In this document: positions 3,494 through 64,000 of the stretch, one piece after another
Layout: every line of letters starts with the position of its first letter
Numbering within the stretch: the stretch's first letter is position 1
Source of the DNA: Raillietiella orientalis
Lineage: Eukaryota
Assembly: GCA_036172245.1 (NCBI GenBank)
Contig: JAYWIR010000011.1
Span: forward strand, 1,426,001-1,490,000
Reading direction: 5' to 3'
DNA length: 64,000 bases
Notes under the pieces: model-generated
Databases searched by the model: none
Told to the model about the DNA's origin: nothing
The model's input: only the letters and a program-made list of their open reading frames with translations
Position numbers and translations under genes: made by a program

Positions 3494-3613
3494 GTTCACG
3501 GCCATACCACGCTGAAAGCACCGCCTCTCGTTGGATCGGCGAAGTTAAGCAGCGTCGGGCCCGGTCAGTACTTGGATGGGCGACCGCCTCGGAACCCCGG
3601 GTGCCGTGAGCGA
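3494..3613 (+). rRNA. 5S rRNA: 5S rRNA gene (eukaryotic)
   Basis: GTTCACGGCCATACCACGCTGAAAGCACCG...GAAGTTAAGCAGCGTCGGGCCCGGTCAGTACTTGGATGGGCGACCGCCTCGGAACCCCGGGTGCCGTGAGC matches the metazoan 5S consensus. Helix I pairs (3494-3502 with 3603-3611). Followed by a TTTTT Pol III terminator at 3617-3621. Confidence 0.93.
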
Positions 3614-4199
3614 CCCTTTTTGGCCGGCAGGAGCGTCGCCCAGCAAGAAGAGTTGCAGCGGTGACTGTCGTTCCAGCGTTTCGGGTCAACAACCCCTCCG
3701 ACGTTCGCTTTCCCTTTTGCTAAGCATCCCTCCGTTGCCGGGTGACCGACAAGCACGCCCGTGCCACTGTTGTGACGGCGTGGCCTTGGGGGCGCGGCGG
3801 TTCAAGTGAAAGCACCACCCCACCCGGCCGGCGCTTCCCTGCGACGGCTGCTTCTGAACCGAGGCCAGCGGACGTGGAGCGGCCCCAAAGGGCGCTCTTC
3901 GGACGACCGACTCGCCACAAAAAGAGAGGTCGCTGATGCCAGCGGGCATCCACCCCCTTCCAGAAGAACCGCTTGGGAGTTGACCCCAAGTCCCGAATGA
4001 GGTTAAAAACGCTTGTGGATTGCATGTGCTAACGCGTGCACTTCGCATGAAGACGAGGAAACGCGTTCATTCAAATGTATTCTTTGTACAGATGTGATGA
4101 GTACGCTGATGCTCATACGTATGGCGTTTGATTCTGATTTTCCAGCTCCTTCTTGCCGTAAGATTGCAACTACAAGAATTACTATGGAAACGGAAGCTG

Positions 4200-5960
4200 C
4201 TCATTATGAGCTCATTCATGCCACTTTGCAGAGAAGAGGCAACAGAATCGTACTTGAAGCTGACGTAGAGGCCGTAAAGTCATTACTTGATGAAAATCAT
4301 GAATTGAGTCATCAAGGGTAAAGCATTGTCAGAAGGAAAAGTAGCAAACAGTATATTATTTGAATTAAACTTCAATGATGAACGTCATCTACCACGTGAA
4401 GGCACAGATGTGATCTCGGATTGGAAAGTAACACCACCAAATACTACGAAGGCCTTCTGATGTCATCGTCCACCTTCATTACATCGCATTTGACGATGCA
4501 GAGCAATTGAGCAATGAAGTAAAAAGCTCTGCCAAAGCTAAAATACCATTATGGCATGTTGGCAATGACTGTTAAGCGAGGGTGATGAAGAAGAATGGCA
4601 TAGATTTATACAAACCTCAGCGTTTAAGTTTAAGCCCATTTTTCCAGAAATCGATTTAAGCTATGACTGTTCTTGCCCAATTTTAAAGACCTCAGAGCTC
4701 ATATGATCCTCAGATACTCAGACCTCAAAAGTCAGATGAATGTAAAAGTAAGTAGTATAAGGATACTCATAAAGTAACTGTGACTCAGCTGGAAAGTGAA
4801 CGGGTCATTAAAGCAACTAATGCGGATAAAATAGAGAAGATTATGGTGACAAAACCCCATAAGGCAGAAGATGAACTGCAAATAATCTGACGTTCAACCG
4901 TTACTTAATCGCTGGAAGGAATGCTTCTGCAAAAGGAGGTGCGAAAACAAGTATCTGCGGTTAGTCAAAGCCAAGTTCATTATCAAGTTGAAATGCCCCA
5001 TAGAATCCTTATTTATCTTAGATAAATAAGGATTCTATGGGGCATTGAAGATCAAGATATCGAATCTGGTGACTCGGAGAATCCTTCTATTCATCCATAT
5101 TATAAAAGAGTAATGGGGCTTCGAAGTAACGAGTTTCCAATCACTGAGATCAAGAAGGTAAATGAGACTGTTTAGAAGACAGTTGCTACCACTCATGGCT
5201 CATACTCTCGACTTCTTGTTCCTATAACTGACTCTGCAATCCTGGAGATTATCCATACAAAACATGATGGTGTTATTCATCGAAATAGTGCAGATTATAA
5301 ACTAAACGCACGAAACGTGGATTGGTCATCACGCCAGCGTGTAGTTATCAAAAAATTTATCGTTGTCGGACTCATGCAAGCCCTCAAGATGCGAATGAAG
5401 AAGGATGCCAAGTATGAGGAGAAGTTGATGAGAGTTTGGTTCTGACCGATTCTACCTAAAAAGATGCCCCACTGTGATTGAATCACCATAGATGCGAAAG
5501 GGGTGGAGAATAAAGGGAGTTGCGCATCCCTGGAGACCATCATGAATGCCAAAAGCGCCGAAGCTCCTAGCGGAAAACTGCTACTTTGCTACACTCATCG
5601 AACGTGGAAAGGTGAAAAGATAAAAGTAGTGAATCATGCCATTCATGTAGTACCGATGAACGAGTTGGACGCGATGAAATGGGGCACGAGTGGCCTTCAT
5701 GCACCAGTTGTCGAAGAACGTCTGCGTAATGGCCGAAATTCAAGAGAACTTACAACAACTCAAGGAGCATTCGTTGGTTCCTCCTTTGACCACGATATGT
5801 GTGTGATCAGCAGACATAAAACAGTCTGCAGCAATTGCGAACAGGGAAATAATTCTGCCGACTAATGTAACAGTGGTTGATATGGATGGAAATGGTAAAA
5901 GAGCTCATTCATCACCGTATGAGCCGGTATTGGAGCGGTTCACACAGACTAATGAAGTTA
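4200..5960 (+). mobile_element. Degenerate DDE integrase fragments (LTR-retrotransposon/Ginger-like)
   Basis: Two zinc-binding-like H-x-H segments (LLDENHELSHQG; LLVPITDSAILEIIHTKHDGVIHR), then PILPKKMPHCD*ITIDAKG and SSPYEPVLERFTQT, resembling integrase core motifs. Many stops and frameshifts; boundaries approximate. Confidence 0.5.
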
Positions 5961-19989: not shown

Positions 19990-20678
19990 CACACTTATTC
20001 GGGGTGCCCGTTCGTATCTCACTGGAGGCATGCGATTTCGGGGCATCTTTCTTTGACGTGCTCGGTGGCCTCGCAGTTGATGCAGTACTTGCTCTTCCCG
20101 TAGTACCAGAGGTCGATGGGTTCTCCACCGACCACCACTTTATGGGACAGCCTTAACTCCTTGATGCGCACCACGTCAAGCTCACTAAGGATCCCGTCAA
20201 ATACGCAGAATCTGTTGGGCTTTGCCCAAAGCACGTGGACACTGCCGAATTTGTGAAGTTGCTCCTGTACGACGCTCGGTGACATCAGTACGGTAATGCC
20301 CCTTAGGTGGACCGCGTTAGAGTCGTCCACTGGAACGGGGAAGACCTGGTGGCCTCGACTCGGGGGTCCGCAACAGTCTTCGTGCTAGACACACCTCCTT
20401 GCAGGTCAACTCAGCGTGCTGTCCACGCTCCTGATCGTGATCCAAGTCACGTTCGATCTTTACGGATCCGCTTCGAAGGAACGCGCAGTGCGATCGTCGA
20501 AAACCCTGACTACCTTGTAGACTTCGGCCAAGGCTATGGCCGCTACAGAGGGCGCGGTGACCCCGGCGCTGTATTCCCTCGTCGGAGAGAAGAATGAAGC
20601 TCCGGAGACAGATGCAAGAGACGGTCTTCCGATACCCCCCTGGCTCTTTTTCGTGGTAGATTCAGGCACTTGCGCCAT
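19990..20678 (-). mobile_element. L1/Tx1-type ORF1 (gag-like, CCHC zinc knuckle), pseudogenised
   Basis: ATG at 20678 gives MAQVP...RPSLASV (SYA.V-like). Then VHLRGITVLMSPSVVQEQLHKFGSV...GEPIDLWYYGKSKYCINCEATEHVKERC, a CX2CX4HX4C knuckle. Internal stop and frameshift. Confidence 0.75.
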
Positions 20679-21781
20679 CCACACACCACCGAAGCCCAGC
20701 GACGACACCAAGTAAAGCAGGGGGTCGGGAGCGCTAACATAACACCTCCGAGTACGACCGCAAGTACGACCGCATGGAGAAAGGAATTCCCCTTCTTGTT
20801 GTTGTTTTCGCTTTTCTTCGAAATAAGAGAACGGTCGAGTGTGGAGAACTTCAGCTGCGAGTTCCAAACTTTCCACCTGTCCATACTCATCTTGTCGTAA
20901 TTTGGTTCCCAATTTGAGAAAACAATAATGTGAGGTGGTTGGAAGTACTTGATCGATCCTTGATATTTTGAGGCAAACATGATGCCGTTCTTCATGGTTT
21001 CTATAAACCCATACTGGACGATCTCCTGGTTGTCCCTTGTCAGGTCGACGACGATGATGTGTTCTCCGTTATAAATGTGGGCGGCATCAGCCTTCTTGCA
21101 GCTGTGCATGTATATGGCGCCCTTCTTTAGGTAGAGAAATTTGGCAAATGTGGTTTTGCCGTGTCCACCTTCGGGATCGAAGTACCAGTATATTTTTCTG
21201 GCGTCAGGGTTTGTTCTGATGAGTTTCAGTATGTCCATCTGCCATGTACGAAGTTGGAGGCCAGCCATGGGGTTTGGGTGTAATCTGCTTCTTGTCAATC
21301 GGAAGCATTCTTTGACGAAGTTTATGTTTTTGCTGTAGAACTTCGTATGGTTTTCCAAGATGTCAAGCTCTGTGGCTCCGTTTTTAATTTGCTGGAGAAT
21401 CTGGAAGATATTGGAATTATTATCATTATAAATTATAATTACCATGTCCTGGTAGTCGGTTGTTTCTTTGTGTTGTTGTATGAGGCCGTATGTCCATGCT
21501 TCCTTATCTTCTTTTGTGCAGTACCGTAAGTTGCTTTCGGGTGATCCTTTTGCTCGTTCGAGATGTGCTTTGTCGAACGGCGGTCGTTTGAGGCTTGGCA
21601 AGGTGCGTGGATCACGCAACTGGAAATAGCCTTGCAGGTGAGGTGTTCCTGTTGTAGCTGTTTCTTTGCCAATGACTGCGTAGGTGCATTGGCGTCTGCA
21701 CCATTCTTTTATTTGTTGGAGTTCTTCTTCGAGATAATTGCAGAGCGTGAAACACCAATACAGAAAGTGTCCGTAAGGCAT
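20543..21781 (-). CDS. rep: CRESS virus replication-associated protein (HUH endonuclease + SF3 helicase); viral part 21781-20866, then read-through into flank
   Basis: Motif I WCFTLCN, motif II TPHLQG, motif III YCTK, Walker A DPEGGHGKT, Walker B IIVVDL, motif C VFSN, Arg finger MDRW; no internal stops. Candidate 42-nt intron at 21401-21442. Confidence 0.96.
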   Translation of the reverse strand: MPYGHFLYWCFTLCNYLEEELQQIKEWCRRQCTYAVIGKETATTGTPHLQGYFQLRDPRTLPSLKRPPFDKAHLERAKGSPESNLRYCTKEDKEAWTYGLIQQHKETTDYQDMVIIIYNDNNSNIFQILQQIKNGATELDILENHTKFYSKNINFVKECFRLTRSRLHPNPMAGLQLRTWQMDILKLIRTNPDARKIYWYFDPEGGHGKTTFAKFLYLKKGAIYMHSCKKADAAHIYNGEHIIVVDLTRDNQEIVQYGFIETMKNGIMFASKYQGSIKYFQPPHIIVFSNWEPNYDKMSMDRWKVWNSQLKFSTLDRSLISKKSENNNKKGNSFLHAVVLAVVLGGVMLALPTPCFTWCRRWASVVCGWRKCLNLPRKRARGVSEDRLLHLSPELHSSLRRGNTAPGSPRPL

Positions 21782-21846: not shown

Positions 21847-21882
21847 AGATGCTATCTGGTTAGTATTACCCAGATAGCATCT
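21847..21882 (+). promoter_or_regulatory. Rolling-circle replication origin stem-loop with TAGTATTAC nonanucleotide
   Basis: AGATGCTATCTGG-T-TAGTATTAC-CCAGATAGCATCT: perfect 13-bp stem, nonamer at 21861-21869, lying between the rep and cap starts. Confidence 0.96.
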
Positions 21883-22125: not shown

Positions 22126-23044
22126 GTGGCTGCACGTGGCGGTCGCCGCGCTCGTAAGAGATATGCTGCGAAGTCTCGCGGGTTTGTTGGAGAGCGTAGG
22201 CGTGTAGCTGTTAGCGGCTATTCGACTTGCAAGAAGCGAAGACGTCCGTCGTCGTCGTGTGTTGCGATTATATCGGAGGCCGCGTGGTCGTTTGTCTAGG
22301 GCGAGACGCGTTGTGAAGAGGGATGTAATGTTAAATGCTGTGCATTATTCGTCGTTGCGGTCAGCTGATGGAGATTCTGTAAATTGTTCGTGGATGTTTA
22401 CTTACGTGGAGAACGGATGGACTTTGGCTAGCGTATTGTCTGAGCTAAATTTGTCTGAGTTTGCTCGTTATTATCGTTATGTGCGATTTCGTGGAATGGC
22501 TATGAAGATAGAGCCGATGTCATTAGGTTTGACTATCGGAAATATGGCTGAAGAGTTTGGAATGAAGGTGTCATATCGCAATTTGTTGTTGTATCAGGCG
22601 TCTGCTCAAGGTGAATTTTTTTCGTCGTTGGCTGGTATGCCTTACCATAAAGTGGAGGATGTTATAAGTGGACATAAGGAGACGAGTGGTTGTATGGCTC
22701 GTTATTTCGGTGTACGTGGCATTCGTGTGTACTCGAAGGCTTATGTAAGGAAGGATATGGAATGTTTTGGTGGACAGCTGAAACGTTGGATACGATGCCC
22801 TTGGATAGATTGTGGAGAGGGTACAGGTCTTGATCGAGAGTTGAATTGTACAATGTTTGTTGGTCGTATGCATGTACTGAAGCACATGTCTGGAGTGGAC
22901 ATACCTGATTCGATAAAGGCTAGTTGCCAGTCAGGTGTATGTCCTAAAAACGGCTCGATGACTCAAGGGTACCCAATATTCAGACTGACTCGAACATTCT
23001 ACTTAGAGTTCAAGCATCTGAGAGACCCTTCCTTGTATAATTGA
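22126..23044 (+). CDS. cap: CRESS virus capsid protein (start uncertain; main frame open 22208-23044)
   Basis: Arg-rich N-terminus (VRRRRVLRLYRRPRGRLSRARRVVKR), circovirus-type jelly-roll signature SEFARYYRYVRFRGMAMKIEP and C-terminal TFYLEFK. Position opposite rep fits. A further Arg-rich segment lies in another frame from GTG at 22126. Confidence 0.85.
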
Positions 23045-28858: not shown

Positions 28859-31733
28859 ATGGCAGACTGGGAAGAGATAAGAAAACTTGCTGCAGACTTC
28901 CAAAGGGCTCAATCATCAGGTCCAACCCAAAAGTAGGTCCACTGTGTTCAAACTTGATGTGACCTTACTGCTAATTAAATGGGGTTTTGCAGGCTATCTG
29001 AAAAAAACTGCATTGAAGTTATAACCAAATTGCAACAGCTGAAGTTGTTAGAAGTATATTTTACTGTTGATGGCAAAGAATATGTGACTCCTAAACAGTT
29101 ATGCAAGGAAATAAGAGATGAAGTATATATTCAAGGTGATCGGAAAGAAAAGTTTTGAAAATGTTTTATGAGTAATGTCCAGGCCGAATCAACATAGTAA
29201 ATTTAGCCAAGACTCTAAATATTGATTTGAGCTGCATTGAAAGTCGTGTACCTGAAATTGTTAAAATGGACCCTAAAGTACACTTTGTTTTGGGACAGTT
29301 TGTGCATGATTGTTATTTGGATCGCATTTCTGAAGAAATTAATGAAAAGCTCCAACAAGAAGGCCACTTGTTAATAACTGACCTTGTCAAATTATATGAT
29401 TTTCCACTGGATTTTGTTCAGCAGGTTTGCATCCACTGATACTCATCTGGGGAACTTTCAGTTTAAAAATCGTACAGATGCTAAATAGCAGATTGAATCT
29501 AATTGTGCAAGGCCGAGTGGATTCCTCTTCTAACATCATCTTTACAGAAGCTCATTTATCCAGAAGTCAGGCTCATATCCTTGGTAGTTTGTCAGCTGTA
29601 ACTCGTCCAATTTCTTGTGCATATCTTATAAATTTGTATCATTTCCAAGAAAGGATTTTTTTTAGTAAGACCTCAAAATATAATTCAACATTTAATCCAT
29701 GTTATCTTCAGATATTGTAGATGAGCTGATTTCTTCTGGTAAATTAGCTGGCAGCTTAGTAGGAGGTCGTCAGTCAGTGAAAGCTGTATATGTTCCCGAG
29801 TTATATTCTCGTGCACAATCTGAATGGGTACTGCACAATCTTCTGCAGAATGGTTGTGTAGGCAAGTATTTGTTTTCAAAGTGTGAAAAGGATGGTATTT
29901 ACAGTGTATGTCCAGAATACAGTGCTTTGGGGAAACTGGGAGTCAGTGATCCAGAAGCTTTCATCAAAAGGTTGAATCCTGGGAAGGACATAGTTTATTT
30001 GTCATGGTGTTGTCTAGGCAGCTCTTTGCTGGTTCAAGTTGAAGCCTGCATTGAAGAGGTTGCCAATGAAGGTAGTGCTTGGCTTGATGTTCTGGTAAGC
30101 ATGAAGATTAGCAGTGTTATCCTAAGAAATTTTGTAGCCTGTTTTCCCAGCATCTTTCACTCCTAAGGATGTTGAGAATGTCATCAAGCATGTGCTTCTA
30201 CATATGCAAGTGGGAGCTCAGGTTGATCTTTATCAGCATTCCATTGTGGTGAACAAATCAGTTCTTGCGGAAATCTTTAAGAGATTGGAAAATGGGATGC
30301 AGGAGAGAGCTATGAAAGTGAGTTCTGTTTAAAAATTGCAAATCTGCTGATACCTGTCAAGGTAGCTCAACACAATCAACTGTACAGCAGTCAGTCTCAT
30401 GGAAAAGCACAGAAACCACAAAAGGTGGTAGAAAAATCCAAAACAGATAAGAAAGAAGAAAGACGTCGCCGAGCCATTACAGGTCATCAGGGAGGCCATC
30501 AAGGAGGAAACACAAAGGTCAGTAACTTTAGTGAATGAATAGTATTTTTGAAATTATAGTGTGCTATTATGGCTTTTCATTTTAGGGTAGAGAATCTAAG
30601 ACGAAATCAACGAAAAAGAAGACATCACATGAAATTCAAGATACTGAGGAAGAGTTAGTAAATGAAAATGTTCCATCTTTATTTACTTATATGTCAGTTG
30701 ATGAACTGCATGCCTTTTTGAAAGAGGAAACTGATTTATGTGATGCTCCAGAAAATGTTCTTCATGATGTCTCTCACACTATGTGGCCTTCTTTGTGTGC
30801 TACTTATCAAATTGTAGCCCGAGAAGCAGCTGAAGCTGCTTTATCTGCAAGTGTTGAAAAGCGACGTCAGCAACATTATCAGCTTCAAGAGCGACTGAAT
30901 ACCCAAGTTGCTATGCTGCATCTATACAAAAAAGGAATTGAGCAATTTGAGAGTGATCAACAACAGAAAGAGCTAACTTTGTACCTTTTGCGCAATGTGG
31001 GTGCAGATCTAGTGGGTTTGATTTTGCTACATTTGTCTGAAGCAGAAGCATTAGCCCTCCCTAACTCAGAGGTATTAATTCTCACTTACATTTCTTGTTT
31101 AATGTTTTCACATAAGCAACGTACCAGACTTCTTCATCAGCTTGATCCTGGACTTCAGAGTGATCTTCTCAAAATGCTTAAATGCACCTGCTTAGAGGAA
31201 TTTTTTCCTCTGCTGAATCTTTTTCTTGAAAAACCTGAGTGTGACTTGATGCTGAAAAAAATGGATCAGAGGAGAAACAAGTACGTGTGCCCTAAAAGAC
31301 TCACTTCATACAGTGTTTCTTGATAGAGAGATCTTGCAGGATCATGTAAGAGGTTTACAGGAACAACTTGAACATTCACATGAGGGACCAAATATTTTGC
31401 TTCTTTCATGCCTTCTCCTGTTCCAGTTCTATACAGGATTCATGTTGTGTGCTTCTGGGAAATTCGTTACTAATATTTTACATTTGCTAAACTCATTCAT
31501 ACCAGAAGATGTTTATCAGCTTCTGGAAGACTGTCGAGGTTAGTAACAATAATTAAAAACAAGCATTGTGTTTGTTGATAGAAATTGTAATCAAATGTGT
31601 TATGGAACAAGGAGATCCAAATAGCCATAGTGTTTCTGAAGAACAGCTACTTCGCCTGTCTTCCAGAGTGAGGACAACTGTGATTAATCTTGTGAAATCT
31701 GGAGATACTGAGAAAGCTGATAGCCAAAGATAG
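28859..31733 (+). CDS. UFL1: E3 UFM1-protein ligase 1, 12 exons, ~774 aa
   Basis: N-terminus MADWEEIRKLAADFQRAQ...KLSEKNCIEV is the UFL1 signature. Exons 28859-28932, 28993-29135, 29183-29424, 29478-29664, 29712-29861, 29916-30094, 30138-30317, 30362-30517, 30586-31071, 31117-31280, 31327-31538, 31582-31733 sum to 2325 nt in frame and end in TAG. Confidence 0.95.
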
Positions 31734-57717: not shown

Positions 57718-58452
57718 GTCAGTGATCCCTCCCGGATAGCCCCGAAAATATCCCCCTCGCTTTCTCCCGCATGTCCTTTCCTCCTCTCCCGTCCTCGGCG
57801 TTCCCCCCCAGGACAGAGGAGGTGTGTGTGTGCGTGTGTGTGAAGTGCAGGGGGGGGGGGGAGGTTCGATCCGGTCCCCTCCTTCTCCCTCCCTTCTCCC
57901 GTCTTTCGGGCGTTCTCCCGGGACGGCGAGTCTTCCCGACCGATGCCCGCTGGAATGCCGCTGCCTCCCCTCCCCTTCTCGCTGGAGAGGGGTGGTGAGG
58001 CTGAGCGCGCGCGCAGGCCTTGCCTCCAGGAGGCGACGGCACCTCACCCTGCTGGAAGAGTTGGTGAAGGCAGAGGCGGAGGTGCACCAGCCAGCGCCCG
58101 CGAAGGCTTTGCTCCCCTCCCCCCCCCCCTTCCCTCCCTCGCGCTGGCACAGGCCGCTGTCAGCGGGAGCAGGCGGGCGTAGGTCCAGGATCCGGGCACC
58201 GCTCCAAGCATCCCTCCCTCCCTCCTGTTTTGGCAAGCTCGCCGTCGCCTCCGCGAGATGGCGAGGAAAGAGGGGGAAGGGGAAGCGGGTGGCCCTGAGG
58301 GCGATGCGTCGTCCGGTTTTCCCGGGGTGGCGCACCGCCTCCCTTCCTCCCCCGTCCCTCCCTGCGCCTGGGTATACGCGCGAGCGCACCTTCTTCCCCC
58401 CTCCCCCCCGCCCCGCACCCCCTCAGCAGCGCCGCATCTTCCTCTACCGAAG

Positions 58453-58770
58453 CTGCGGAAGCCGGTGTCCAGCCCCTCCATCCCCGCGTCTATGAAGGAG
58501 CGGAAGCGGGAGAGCAGCGCAGAGGATGCCGGCGCCTCGCTAGTCGGAGTCCGCGCGGAGCACCCCGACTCACGTGAGGAGAGGAAGCAGCAGCAGCAGC
58601 AGGGACGGGCGAAGGCGACCAAGCCGAACATCGGGTACCGTCTGGGCAGGCGCAAGAACCTCTTCGAGAAGCGGAAGAGGATCAGCGACTACGCCCTGGT
58701 GATGGGCATGTTCGGCATCGTCGTCATGGTCGTCGAGAACGAGCTGTCCAGCGCAGGCGTCTACAGCAAG
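58453..58770 (+). CDS. SK: Small-conductance Ca2+-activated K+ channel exon (pre-S1/S1)
   Basis: [15 protein letters not shown]...[50 protein letters not shown]|gtaggc is the KCNN/SK signature. Confidence 0.95.
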
Positions 58771-61700
58771 GTAGGCCGGGTGGCGGCGCTGCCGCTCGCT
58801 CCATGTCCCCCCCTCTACACGGAGCTGCCGTTGCCGAACGGCTGCTCCCGGCCTTCCCGGTCAAGGGAGAGCATTCCTCCCTCCCTCCCTCCTTCCCTCA
58901 TTTCCTCCCTCCCTCCTGCAGGCCATTCGCCGCCCGACCTCTCCCGGGTCTGAGCGCGGCGAACAGCGGGGCGCGTCGCCCTTCCCGCCAACCCCACGCG
59001 CTTGCGCGGAACCCGAGGCAGGCGGGGAGGCCGATCCCGGCCGTCTGAGCCTTTAGTGTTCGTCGTCGTCGCCGCCCCGCCCTTTTGCCCCGCGACCACA
59101 TCAGCCCGCAGCTTTCCGCGGTGGGACGCCCTCGAGGCGCGGCTCGCATCTCGCCGGCCGATCGATCTCCACGGCCGATCGCCGGTGCGGGCCGGCTGGT
59201 CTATCTTCCCGCGCGATGCGCGCGCGCCCTGCGAGGCGGCGCGCCTTCGCTCGCGGAGACGGGAGGCGTTTACCACTGCGCGCACCGAATCCGTTCCTAC
59301 TCTTCCTGTTTTCGTTGCGTCACGTGGCGAAGGGAGGAGGGCAAGCAAAACCGCGAAACCATTCTCCGCCCTCCTCCTCCTTCCCTCCCCCCTCCACGTT
59401 CTTCTTCCCCCATCGAGGGGTAAAAAAAAAAAAAATGGAAGAAAAAGAAAAGGAAGGAAGGAATTCCGCTCACGAGAAAAGCGAAGGGGCGAAATTCCTC
59501 TCTCATTTTTCTCCTCCCCTCGCTTTTTTCCCAGCAAAGCGATCACCCCTTTTGCGAATGAAGTCGACCGCCGCACGTGACCGCGCGCGGGCAGAGAAGA
59601 GGAGTGAGGAGGAAGAGGAGGAGGAGGAAGAGCAGAGCGACGTAGAGGAGGGGACTTCACCTTGCGAAGGAAACGAGCAGCTCTCCGAGCAGCATTTCCA
59701 CCCTCCCTCCCCCTCCTTTGGAGTCTGTTGGCAAGGGAGGAAAAGCCAGGAAGACCCCAAGACGAATTGCTATCTGGCTGAGGTTCCCGAACCAACGAAA
59801 CGGAACGCCGCCATGCGTCCTGCTCTTCCCCGCGGATGTGGTAATGACGAGGAGGAGGAAGCAGGCGGGCGATCGAGATGGCGCAGAAGAGTTCGGCAAA
59901 TACGAAGGGTCGTGGGGAGAGAGAGAGAGCTCCGTGCTAGTTCTCCCCCCTCCCTCCCTCCTCTTCCTCTTCCTCCCTCTCAGGGCGGACGTCCGGGCGC
60001 CCGACAGGAAACCTTCCACCTGCGCCCCTTCGCTTACTGCGCGCGGGGAGAAAAGAAATGCTGCGAAGGGGGAGGAGATAGAGGAGCACGCCAGCCGGCC
60101 CCCGACCTTCCCCGGCCGTGGCGCTCGCACCCCGCGGGCATCGCGGCGCGATCGGTTTTTTGCAACCTCGTCGAGGGACCCCGTCGTTAAGAAGGTTTTC
60201 CAGTCCTTGACAACGGAGACTGCTGCAACAATGATCAGCGTGGTTGGAAACCAACTCTCAACAATAACGGAGTCTACCATTGGTATTGTTGCTGCCGGGG
60301 CCGTGAACGGTGGGGGGCAACCATTGTTGCCGTTCCGCCGGCGCGCGTCATCCGGCCACGTACGGCCCCGATCCCTGCAGCTGTGCCGTGAGGTGGGCAC
60401 CTATCAAGTAGGTCCAGGGGAGTGGAGCACGAGCCACGGTCACATGACTGAGAAGGTGCCGCTAGCCCAGCGAGGTTCCCATCGAAAACCCGGGAGGTAA
60501 AACACGGGGTCAGTAGGATGGGCCCAGAGCTCTTGCGCAGCGGGTGGGTGGGGGAAATGAAGGAGGAAAGGAAAGGGGTGGCCGCGATAGGGATCATCTC
60601 TCCGAACGGCTTGGGGATGCAAGGGAGACGAGGGACACTCGTCAGGGAGGGGGGAACCTGCATGGAGCGAACACGTGCAGAGGAAAACGGGATGGATGGA
60701 AAGCGTGCCGGTTCCGTGGCAACGGACCCGCTACCGCGCGTCGTCTGTCTGTTCAGTCGGCCGAACAGACAGACGCCGGGCGGACTGCGCCCCCTCCACG
60801 TTGTCGCTCGGAGGCTCCACCTGTACCGCTCTTCCTTCGTTCCGCCCCTCTCACCCCGTGGTCTCTCCCTCTCCGAGCTCCTCCCTCGTCGCATCACCTC
60901 TCAGGACCACTCGCCATGGCAACGCCCCGAAGGCTCCTCCCGTTTCCCTGACGAGGGGCGGTCCAGCCTCCCGTCGGTCGAGGGGAACGTTGCGACCTCC
61001 CTCGTCGGGAGGGAGACTGATCGTCGGGCAGAGACAGGGAGGAAAGGACTCCGACGCTCCCCCTGGGACTCCCGAGGTACCGCCACTCCTACTCTGGGGA
61101 AGATGGAGAAAGAGAGAGAGAGCGGAGGGACATCGTGTCATTCCGCTGCGGCTCCTCCCGCTTTTCTCCGGAAACCCCCGACGTTTTCCCCCTCTCCCTG
61201 GGGATCCATCAGCAGCGGCAGAGGAGGGAGAGCGAGTTCTTCCCGAGTCGTCCGCACGCGTCCTGCCTTTGGCGTCACCCCCTGGCACAAGGACGGAGGT
61301 GGCCTACAGGAAGGACGCGCGGACGCTCTGTTCCACTTTCCCTTTCCCCTCCTCTTCCGCCGCCTTTTTTTTCTGGGGGGGAGGTTCTCTGAGAAAGCAG
61401 GGAGTGGAAGGAAGAGAAAAGGGGTGGAAGAGGAGGGTCGAGCAGCAGCTGAAGAGCGGAGGAACAGAGCAAACGAGTAGGGGATGGAAAGGAAGGAGGA
61501 GGAAGAGGATCTCTTTCACGAGCTGCCGGCTGGTCACCAAGGCAGACCCATGGTCGTTTCGCAGCGCGTGCTCACTCTCAGCAGCCTCCGGCGGCGGGAC
61601 CGCGACTCCGCACCCGAGGGGGAAGCATGGAAGGAGCACTCTGCCAGCGCTCCTCTGGGACATTCGGAGTCACAGGGTCGCCCGAGAAGCAGTGAAGACG

Positions 61701-62270
61701 CCTTCTCTTCTTCCCTCTCTCGCCGAAGAGGAGCTGCCGCCCTGAGAGTGTCACGCCCTCCCACCCCGCAAAGGGCGGTGCCTCGTCCTCACTGCAGGAC
61801 CGGCGTGACGCGGACGCCTCTCGCGACTCGCCGTCCCCTTCCGCAGTGCCGTCCTCCGCCGGCATCCAGAAATCTCCCCCTCCCTTCCTCCCCCTCCAGT
61901 CCTCCGCCGACTCCGAGCGTCGTTGCTCCGTCTTCCTGGAGACGCTCTCCGCCCCCGCTCCGGAAGGCGCGCGCGCGGGACAGAGGAAGATCTGGAAGCT
62001 TGGATGCGAGCTGAGAGGAGGGAAGGATGGCAGCGGCGGCAGGAGGGGCCCGAGACGATCGGAAGAAGGAGGGAGGGGAGAGGAAATGGGGGAAAGGGCG
62101 CGCCGCCACCTCCGTCCTCCGCGCGACCCGCGGAGGCGGCGGAACAGCGGCGACAACGACGACGGCGAAAAGGAGCGCCCCGCCACCCCACCTTCCTGCG
62201 AGCGAAAGCGCGTCTCCAAGGAGACTCCTGCCTTCACCCCGCCCCCACCCACCCCCGTCTTTTCTTGCAG

Positions 62271-62366
62271 GCCTCCTTCTACTCCATGGCCCTGAAGACT
62301 TTGATCACGGTGTCGACGCTGTCGCTGCTGGGCTTCATCGTGGCTTACCACGCCCTGGAGGTCCAG
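62271..62366 (+). CDS. SK: SK channel exon (S2); gene continues beyond the window
   Basis: tttcttgcag|ASFYSMALKTLITVSTLSLLGFIVAYHALEVQ|gtaaag; 96-nt exon, phase 0 at both ends. Confidence 0.95.
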
Positions 62367-64000
62367 GTAAAGGCTGCTCCTCTCCCTTTCTCCTTCCCCA
62401 CCCCCAGCCCTGTGGGTGAAGAGAATCGCGCGGCAACGGCGTCTCCCGCCAGCCGGCTGCACACCTTTCCCTTCACCGCCTTCGAAGGGGGCCATCGTTC
62501 GTCGGGAAAAACGGAACGCCTAAAGGGAAAGGAGCTCTCAATCTCCCAACCCGCCGCCGTGACCACCCTTTTTTCAGGACGGGCATCCGGGCTGCGCGCT
62601 CGCGCCGACCGATCTCCTGCAGCTCGCTGAACGCTCAAGCGGACTGCAACCGGGGGATCCCTCCAGGAGGGTTTCAGGAGCGGGGAGGGAAGGGGACCGC
62701 ATCCCTCGGATCCGGGGTACTTGCCAGTACCCTAGGCCATCACACGGGATCCGGAGGCGGGATGATCGCGGCACCGCCGCCGCCGTCCTCACTCCTTACC
62801 CCCATTCCTTGGACACTTCTGGGGTTTCAGAGCCGCCCGTGGTCCCTTAAGGGCGCCTGGCTCTTCACTCTTTCCATTTCCCCCCTCCCCCTTCCGCTCT
62901 CGACCGGAGGCGGACCGCCGTCTCCCCCTCCTCGGAGGGAAGGACCAGAAGGGCGTGAAGCTCGCGTCCCCTCCTCCTTCCCGGGAGCATCACCCCTCGT
63001 GATACTTCCGGGAAGATCCGTACTCCTCGCCTCCTCCATGGGACCCGGATTTCGAAGCTCTTCCGGGATTTGCGGCAGAGCTCCAGAGGAGGGAAAGGCT
63101 CGGGGATATGCGAGGAGGGGAGAAAGAGGAGTGGGAAAAAGGAGGCTCCCCAAAAACGCCATCTGGCTACTTCCCTCCTCCTCCTCTGCACGCCCCGAGG
63201 AGAGCGAAGCAGGAGCCCTCCCTCACCTCTCTTGAGGAACGGATCCCACACCAGGGGCCGTCTCCGCGGAGACGGAGATGGGACCCCGTCTTAGGGACGG
63301 AAAAGCTTCAAGAGGGGCGAGCTAACCTCTGACCTTTAAGGATTCCCCTTTCCCTCCCTTCTTCGCCTCTTCATTTTCTCATCCGAAAGCACGTGAGGAG
63401 AAGTGCTACTAGCGGGCATCGGCAGCGGTGGAAGCCTCCAATCCAAGGACAGATGAAGGAAGAAAAGGATAGGAAACGGGATGCAAGGAAAAACTCAAAC
63501 TCCTCGTCACCACCACCCCCCTTTTCTCTTGATCAAGAGTTCGAAGCTCTCTCCCTTTGTTCTCTCGAGCTCATCGCTTGAAAACCTCTCCCCTGTCCTC
63601 CGGAAACGATCAAAGAACGACGCGCGCGAGCTTCTCCTTTGTGATCTCGCTATCCTCCTCTTCCTCCTTTCCCGTCTGCTGAAGGATGCTGTCCAACGTC
63701 CTCCTTAGTCAGCGGAAGTGAGGCGGGACGGCCGAGCCGTGGGGAGGCACCCCTGCTGCAAAGTTGACTCTGCTGGAGTTTCCTCCAGCAGAGCCAGCTG
63801 GCGCTTCGTCAGGTGGGCACGAACCCTGGCCCGAGCGCGATTCTCATCTTCGTCTAGAAAAGTCCGGGAAGTTTTGAAGTCTGGGAAGTTTGAGTTTGGG
63901 AAGTCTGGGAAGAGGGAGGAAGAGAAACGAAGCGGATTTTCCGGTCGCCCCTTCGGATCGAACGAAGACCAAGGAATTGCGCTCCTTGCACACGCGTTTT

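Follow-up and report, generated by a model that had tools for sequence, protein, structure and literature searches.

A segment of 42 nt in the rep gene of a circo-like viral unit, located at positions 21442..21401 on the minus strand of the analysed 64,000-nt stretch of DNA (the window), starts with GT, ends with AG and resembles the very short introns of a neighbouring host gene. Judged from the sequence, the chances are evenly balanced that it is a real, host-sized U2-type GT..AG mini-intron. The intron would have been part of a circo-like CRESS-DNA virus, a near-complete genome of which now appears to be integrated in an animal chromosome. The spliceosome of the host would join the codon of M113 to that of I128 or, less well, to that of Q131 via an AG 9 nt further downstream. 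This would remove an A+T-rich spacer at the place where the flexible nuclease-helicase linker meets the first helix of the oligomerisation region. Since the length of the segment is a multiple of three (3n) and the coding frame runs through it without a stop, a message that retains it would yield a Rep of full length plus 14 residues, so that incomplete splicing would not be fatal. Splicing itself, in the free virus or in the present locus, is what we infer from the features described below; the sequence alone would read the same for a spliced and for a translated segment.

The viral unit and its genomic surroundings

The first-pass annotation had called the gene a viral rep and had placed the segment in the linker between nuclease and helicase, and both points were upheld by a Pfam match and an AF2 model. 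The coding region that can be aligned to CRESS-DNA Reps spans positions 20840..21781 (-) and comprises an HUH endonuclease, a linker with oligomerisation helices and an SF3 helicase (Pfam, HMMER, AF2). The ORF matched the Pfam families Viral_Rep (9.7e-16) and, weakly, RNA_helicase (0.0012). CRESS-DNA Reps are recognised by motifs I-III of a Viral_Rep nuclease domain and by a P-loop in the helicase; both are found, and the query has all of the motif columns FT.., PHLQ, YC.K, G..GKT and DR, which are invariant or nearly so. An exhaustive HMMER search yielded 13499 relatives at E<=0.001, and the best full-length ones are about 34-42% identical. One of these is the Rep of Dragonfly larvae associated circular virus-10, an unclassified CRESS-DNA virus; the nearest named Rep, with 37% identity, belongs to an unclassified virus. 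The AF2 model had a mean pLDDT of 86.8, its nuclease domain matched those of the PCV2 and duck circovirus Reps (TMt 0.86-0.89), and the PCV2 Rep' structure 8h56 was among the sequence and fold matches.

The Rep frame has no stop codon of its own. It runs on through positions 20543..20839 (-), so that about 98 further codons are read into G+C-rich flanking DNA (ORF 20543..21781). The GC content changes from 0.44 to 0.55-0.58 below about position 20850, and the Rep homologues end near residue 307-314. Therefore, the integration breakpoint is placed on the 3' end of rep or close to it, and the two virus-host junctions would fall at about 20780-20840 and beyond 23044. Upstream of rep, an origin-like stem-loop is present at 21847..21882, an inverted repeat with 16-nt arms that are 94% complementary; its loop reads TTAGTATTAC on the plus (Cap-sense) strand and contains TAGTATTAC. 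A capsid-like ORF of 278 codons from stop to stop is located at 22208..23044 (+). It has an Arg-rich N-terminus and a Pfam Circo_capsid match of 6e-06, which, with 27.2 bits, is below the curated cut-off of 36.2 bits. The first ATG of this frame is found at 22328, downstream of the Arg-rich part (22208-22330, +), and there is no earlier ATG in the open frame; a non-ATG start or a lost start could be the reason. A small intron that would give the frame an upstream ATG was considered by inspection only and was rejected, the sole readable GT..AG pair being 38 nt apart, G+C-rich and out of frame.

The Circoviridae are demarcated by ambisense rep and cap genes on either side of a stem-loop, the nonanucleotide of which is of the NANTATTAC type, and by a capsid like that of circoviruses. 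In the present unit Rep and Cap diverge, the stem-loop carries TAGTATTAC on the strand of Cap, and the Circo_capsid match stays below the cut-off. The Rep and Cap-like frames are stop-free over 314 and 278 codons, respectively, and the catalytic motifs of Rep are intact. The unit is a near-complete, little-decayed circo-like genome (Rep, stem-loop, Cap) that was opened into linear form close to where rep ends (3') and is embedded in other DNA. No further viral copies were found in the 64-kb window, and 0 of 349 tblastn matches of the homologues lay outside the Rep locus.

As assembled, the unit is placed between a G+C-rich flank with a CCHC gag-like ORF and host genes, namely UFL1, an SK channel and 5S rRNA. 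From the SK-channel domain and UFL1, the surrounding DNA is animal. Searches with UFL1 for a closer placement of this animal gave no match, and a protein atlas offered unrelated PCI-type clusters alone, with scores below 0.9. The earlier suggestion that this animal is the real host of the virus had been drawn from the intron; it is more safely based on the integration itself. The gag-like ORF comprises 88 codons (20019-20285, -) about 260 bp downstream of the end of the Rep read-through (20543). It ends with a CX2CX4HX4C zinc-knuckle pattern (CINCEATEHVKERC) like that of retroelement gag or ORF1, and it had no match in Pfam. It may be that the virus lies within or next to a transposable element.

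Several other features of the window were observed. A full-length 5S rRNA gene is located at 3494-3612 (+; 102 bits). Two ORF fragments have Pfam matches that are unusual in an animal locus, namely TcA_TcB_BD at 4007-4318 (+; 2.9e-06, 27 bits with a cut-off of 25) and DUF4815 at 5482-5862 (+; 1.3e-07, 30.8 bits with a cut-off of 30). Two exon-bearing ORFs at 58183-58950 and 61809-62627 (+) match successive portions of the domain of SK potassium channels (profile positions 1-45 and 43-78). The distance between them is about 3.5 kb, in a G+C-rich region, and therefore the host has long introns besides the 43-68 nt class described below. The GC content across the window is very uneven and ranges from 0.26 to 0.63.

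The 42-nt segment and the introns of a host gene

The minus strand reads GACATG, followed by the 42-nt segment GTAATTATAATTTATAATGATAATAATTCCAATATCTTCCAG (21442..21401) and ATT. The segment consists of 34/42 A+T (GC 0.19) and is translated into VIIIYNDNNSNIFQ (Rep residues 114-127) within a 412-codon ATG ORF (21781..20543); of its three frames, the coding frame is the only stop-free one. The adjoining 9 nt, ATTCTCCAG (21392..21400, -), close with a second in-frame AG (21393-21392) that is a possible alternative acceptor, as judged from the sequence and the acceptor score. A look for a branch point by eye gave no information either way. The GT and AG ends, the length, the A+T content, the open frame and the second AG 9 nt downstream had all been pointed out before, and all of them are present.

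Two readings of the segment have to be weighed throughout. The alternative to the mini-intron is a translated, in-frame insertion of the slippage type, with a 27-nt core (GTAATTATAATTTATAATGATAATAAT), into a linker of variable length, with GT and AG being coincidental. We regard this as a serious possibility that stays short of an even chance. SNIFQ, the last five residues of the segment, would then be original coding sequence at the beginning of the first oligomerisation helix. The insertion accounts for the fact that the segment is in frame and that the coding frame alone is stop-free.

The base composition sets the segment apart from the rest of the viral unit. Among 2164 windows of 42 nt in the unit of about 2.2 kb (mean GC 0.461, sd 0.084) it is the most A+T-rich one (z -3.2), the next-lowest non-overlapping window has a GC content of 0.31 compared to 0.19, and the A+T island in rep begins exactly at the GT of the candidate. 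The codon usage was analysed with a test on synonymous codons, which is independent of the amino-acid content. Asn is encoded by AAT in 4/4 cases inside the segment, and by AAC in 11/14 cases outside of it (Fisher p 0.011). The GC3 of the N/D/Y/F/I codons is 2/11 inside versus 50/81 outside (p 0.0087). An insertion leaves unexplained why synonymous codons ending in A or T occur against the preference of the gene itself. However, the anomaly is limited to the first nine codons (GC3 0/9), as would be expected for an insertion, and the last five (TCC AAT ATC TTC CAG, 4/5) are C-ending codons typical of this Rep. These five codons fit either a pyrimidine tract or true coding sequence. The 27-nt A+T-rich core contains an internal TTATAAT TTATAAT repeat and is of low complexity.

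The host gene UFL1 (28859..31733, +), which was recognised by E3_UFM1_ligase and UFL1 domain matches in Pfam on its exons, served as a reference set of host introns. Models that were generated automatically from frame continuity alone were too permissive, they absorbed coding sequence or picked pseudo-introns of 31-38 nt, and they were discarded. In a model built by hand, ten GT..AG introns of 60, 47, 53, 47, 43, 44, 68, 45, 46 and 43 nt leave one continuous frame of 792 codons, which reproduces the range of 43-68 nt that had been given in the first-pass annotation. The GC content is 0.24-0.42 in the introns and 0.39 in the exons. With 42 nt and a GC content of 0.19, the candidate lies just outside both ranges of this one-gene sample, and it is one base shorter than the shortest of the ten modelled introns.

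Position weight matrices for the splice sites were trained on only ten introns of this one host gene. The donor of the candidate (ATG/GTAATT) scored 6.53 bits, within the range of 2.05-7.34 bits of the true UFL1 donors that were left out singly, and only 0.8% of 238 decoy GTs matched or exceeded it. The acceptor scored 4.78 bits, higher than 8/10 true UFL1 acceptors, and 9.3% of 279 decoy AGs scored as high or higher. The alternative acceptor at 21393-21392 reached 2.63 bits, a score that 23% of the 279 decoys equalled or exceeded. Together with the sizes of the UFL1 introns, these scores uphold the view that the candidate resembles very short host introns. They argue against an insertion, for which it would have to be an accident that a donor and an acceptor of this quality stand right on the borders of the composition island.

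The ends by themselves carry little weight. Among 2457 arbitrary in-frame deletions in the linker, GT..AG ends were observed in 5 cases, with about 10 being expected, and thus such ends are no more than chance. What is unusual is that they fall together with the sharpest composition island of the unit and that, as splice sites, they score like those of the host. Conversely, the open frame has to be counted against an intron. When the bases of the segment were shuffled, the frame was stop-free in 19% of the cases, and an unconstrained intron would be both 3n and stop-free with a joint chance of about 6% (1/3 x 0.19); the same property is found in 1/10 of the UFL1 introns.

Comparison with homologous Rep proteins

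An alignment with related Reps had been proposed as a check of whether the 14 residues are an insertion. The Rep linker of the query is about 14-17 residues longer than that of nearly all relatives, and a BLASTP alignment with P0122, the best full-length homologue, has a gap of 15 residues opposite residues 114-128. In another alignment (A1), the columns of the candidate are filled in 0/25 homologues. A Rep profile was built from 265 homologues. Upon removal of the 42 nt the score rose from 346.3 bits (unspliced) to 353.8 bits, a gain of 7.5 bits, and removal of 51 nt up to the alternative AG gave 352.6 bits. Of 54 stop-free in-frame GT..AG removals of 24-150 nt in Rep, that of the candidate ranked best. 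Only 3/54 improved the score, all of them from the donor of the candidate.

The comparison was less specific with respect to the boundaries. Of the 2457 arbitrary in-frame deletions in the linker, 173 scored as well as the candidate or above it, and the best-scoring one is 45 nt long and does not have GT..AG ends. Among 319 deletions within 1 bit of the candidate or better, one GT..AG pair was seen and a number of the order of one was expected, which is in line with an insertion. The profile alignment of the unspliced Rep put an excess of 17 residues at positions 101-117, upstream of the candidate, as would also suit an insertion. Because the profile places the excess upstream and 173 of the deletions score as well, the alignment with homologues is not boundary-specific and fails to single out the boundaries of the candidate. 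The proposed check therefore gave a divided answer: the excess linker length and the BLASTP gap over the segment mark it as surplus relative to the homologues, but the profile fits the excess equally well upstream.

No Rep relative close enough for a base-by-base comparison of the 42 nt was found in viral contigs, in metagenome contigs or with the exhaustive HMMER search. The viral contigs yielded three loci with 25-30% identity, and the metagenome contigs three loci with 29-40% identity. The best HMMER identity was 42%, in two matched stretches, and belongs to P0121, the top-scoring relative; the top full-length homologues such as P0122 reached 34-38%. P0121 was tried as a comparator for the linker and was set aside as uninformative, its 354 residues forming two tandem copies of the helicase half without a nuclease domain. 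Its source is labelled as a bacterial MAG, and it probably represents a CRESS sequence that was mis-binned or rearranged.

The register of the first oligomerisation helix offered a further handle. Spacings were taken in the 149/265 homologues that have all three anchor columns. From the last Gly of the nuclease domain (G99 in the query) to a motif of the type [ST]-[DN]-hydrophobic, the distance varies from 0 to 31 residues, with a mode of 9 (51/149) and values of at least 24 in 5/149. From the motif to the next conserved Gly (G135) it is 10 residues in 127/149 homologues, 11 in 1/149 and 8 in 1/149. In the unspliced Rep the motif is S123-N124-I125, encoded by the last codons of the candidate, and the spacings are 24 and 10. 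In the product of the 42-nt splice the motif would be T108-D109-Y110 with spacings of 9 and 11, and in that of the 51-nt splice the spacings would be 9 and 8. Each reading combines one typical and one rare spacing, and the rare one of the spliced forms is located in the conserved helix.

In this respect the unspliced reading performed better than the spliced one, since it keeps the conserved helix register that is common to 127/149 homologues, and the spacings of the two splice products were each found once in 149. The wide variation of the linker, 0 to 31 residues, likewise suits an insertion, and so does the AF2 model, in which NIFQ is built without a clash into a helix formed by residues 124-133 and residues 101-120 show low confidence but no conflict. 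In opposition to this, a linker spacing of 24 is rare, and T-D-Y at the modal distance of 9 from G99 would have to be a chance occurrence.

What has been observed directly are the features of the sequence, its resemblance to host introns, the surplus length in comparison to the homologues and the Rep introns in relatives. The two readings differ in the coincidences that they demand. Counted against the intron are the 3n length with its stop-free frame, S-N-I in the conserved register, the variable length of the linker and the AF2 model without a clash. The cost amounts to a chance of roughly 6-10% that the frame is preserved and a shift of one residue in a conserved helix. The coincidences demanded by an insertion were judged to be somewhat less likely.

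It is also conceivable that both descriptions apply, in that the intron is optional. Part of the transcripts would be spliced and both messages would give rise to working Reps, in a virus tuned to a host with short introns. In both cases an [ST]-[DN]-hydrophobic cap would precede the first oligomerisation helix, as T-D-Y after splicing and as S-N-I upon retention. Such a dual use would account for a 3n, stop-free and register-preserving segment with host-grade splice sites, and we consider it an unlikely case.

The least probable explanation, to which we give very little credit, is a change (of the 42 nt or of their 27-nt core) after integration in an unexpressed locus, or an assembly error at the junctions or in the stretch itself, that left a segment without function: the Rep frame that lacks a stop and reads into the flank and the Cap frame that lacks an ATG before its Arg-rich N-terminus mean that expression of the unit as a virus may be absent, and the core is a low-complexity repeat. 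Against this, the two frames that are otherwise open over 314 and 278 codons and the intact Rep motifs speak for little decay. In a neutral insertion, a 3n length and a stop-free frame would come together in only about 6% of the cases, and host-grade splice sites are not expected in it.

Rep introns in related viruses and implications

Introns in rep genes are known from cycloviruses. The Rep of CyCV-VN has been reported to contain a GT-AG intron of 166 bp (PMC3684831). The candidate shares with the cyclovirus introns the GT..AG ends and the location in rep, in a small circular ssDNA virus with ambisense Rep and Cap genes and an origin in a stem-loop. In contrast, the cyclovirus introns have about four times its length and must be removed for the frame to be restored, and the candidate has 42 nt, is in frame and is stop-free; this comparison concerns size and frame.

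Among the distant relatives of the present Rep, a metagenomic sequence (L004, Ga0181339_1011101) has a Rep intron of 95 nt (GTGAGT..TCGTAG, GC 0.49) that is not a multiple of three. After its removal a stop-free product of 263 residues is obtained, which scores 198.9 bits compared to 105.5 bits for exon 1 alone. The nuclease domain of this relative is about 40% identical to that of the query, and its GT..AG intron falls in the first oligomerisation helix as well. However, this intron is obligatory, with stops in the read-through, it has 95 nt, and it lies 7 codons downstream: its split Gly codon aligns to G135 of the query. It is thus not a positional homologue of the candidate. In a second metagenomic circo-like Rep (L005, 560-1010) a GT..AG stretch of about 300 nt, rich in A+T and full of stops, was seen to intervene directly after PHLQG.

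Optional splicing also has precedents. It gives rise to Rep and Rep' in circoviruses and to Rep and RepA in mastreviruses, and it changes the frame or removes the helicase. As in the dual use considered above, one gene yields two Rep isoforms by optional splicing near the nuclease-helicase boundary; unlike in these systems, both forms of the present Rep would keep the whole helicase and would differ by 14 residues.

With respect to the integration, endogenous Circoviridae-like rep+cap units have been described in the genome of Taenia hydatigena and were reported to be transcribed (PMC8384839). These units are near-complete, have rep and cap in opposite orientation and are integrated in the genome of an invertebrate animal, like the present unit, and the main-text passages considered here do not mention a rep intron in them (PMC8384839). 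The likeness concerns layout and setting.

Taken together, cyclovirus Rep introns, circovirus Rep isoforms generated by optional splicing and rep+cap units in an invertebrate genome are already known. If the intron is real, the novelty would lie in its size of 42 nt at the lower limit of the host, in a design that keeps the reading frame, and in intron style as a mark by which the host may be recognised. The range of Rep introns, from about 95-300 nt in the relatives found here and 166 bp in CyCV-VN, would then extend to the lower limit of spliceosomal introns. If the segment indeed has a dual use, it would be the shortest Rep intron described, as far as can be told from a literature search that was not aimed at this point, and an intrinsic host signature in a CRESS-DNA genome. 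If the segment is instead a translated insertion, it is a warning that GT..AG ends, A+T richness and a gap in a variable linker are together insufficient for an intron call.

Metagenomes have supplied most CRESS-DNA viruses, and no host is known for these. The nearly intact and apparently integrated genome directly ties the present CRESS-DNA lineage to an animal. If the intron is a true one that matches the unusually short introns of the host, its size and the style of its splice sites could be a signature of the host that can be read from the viral sequence alone.
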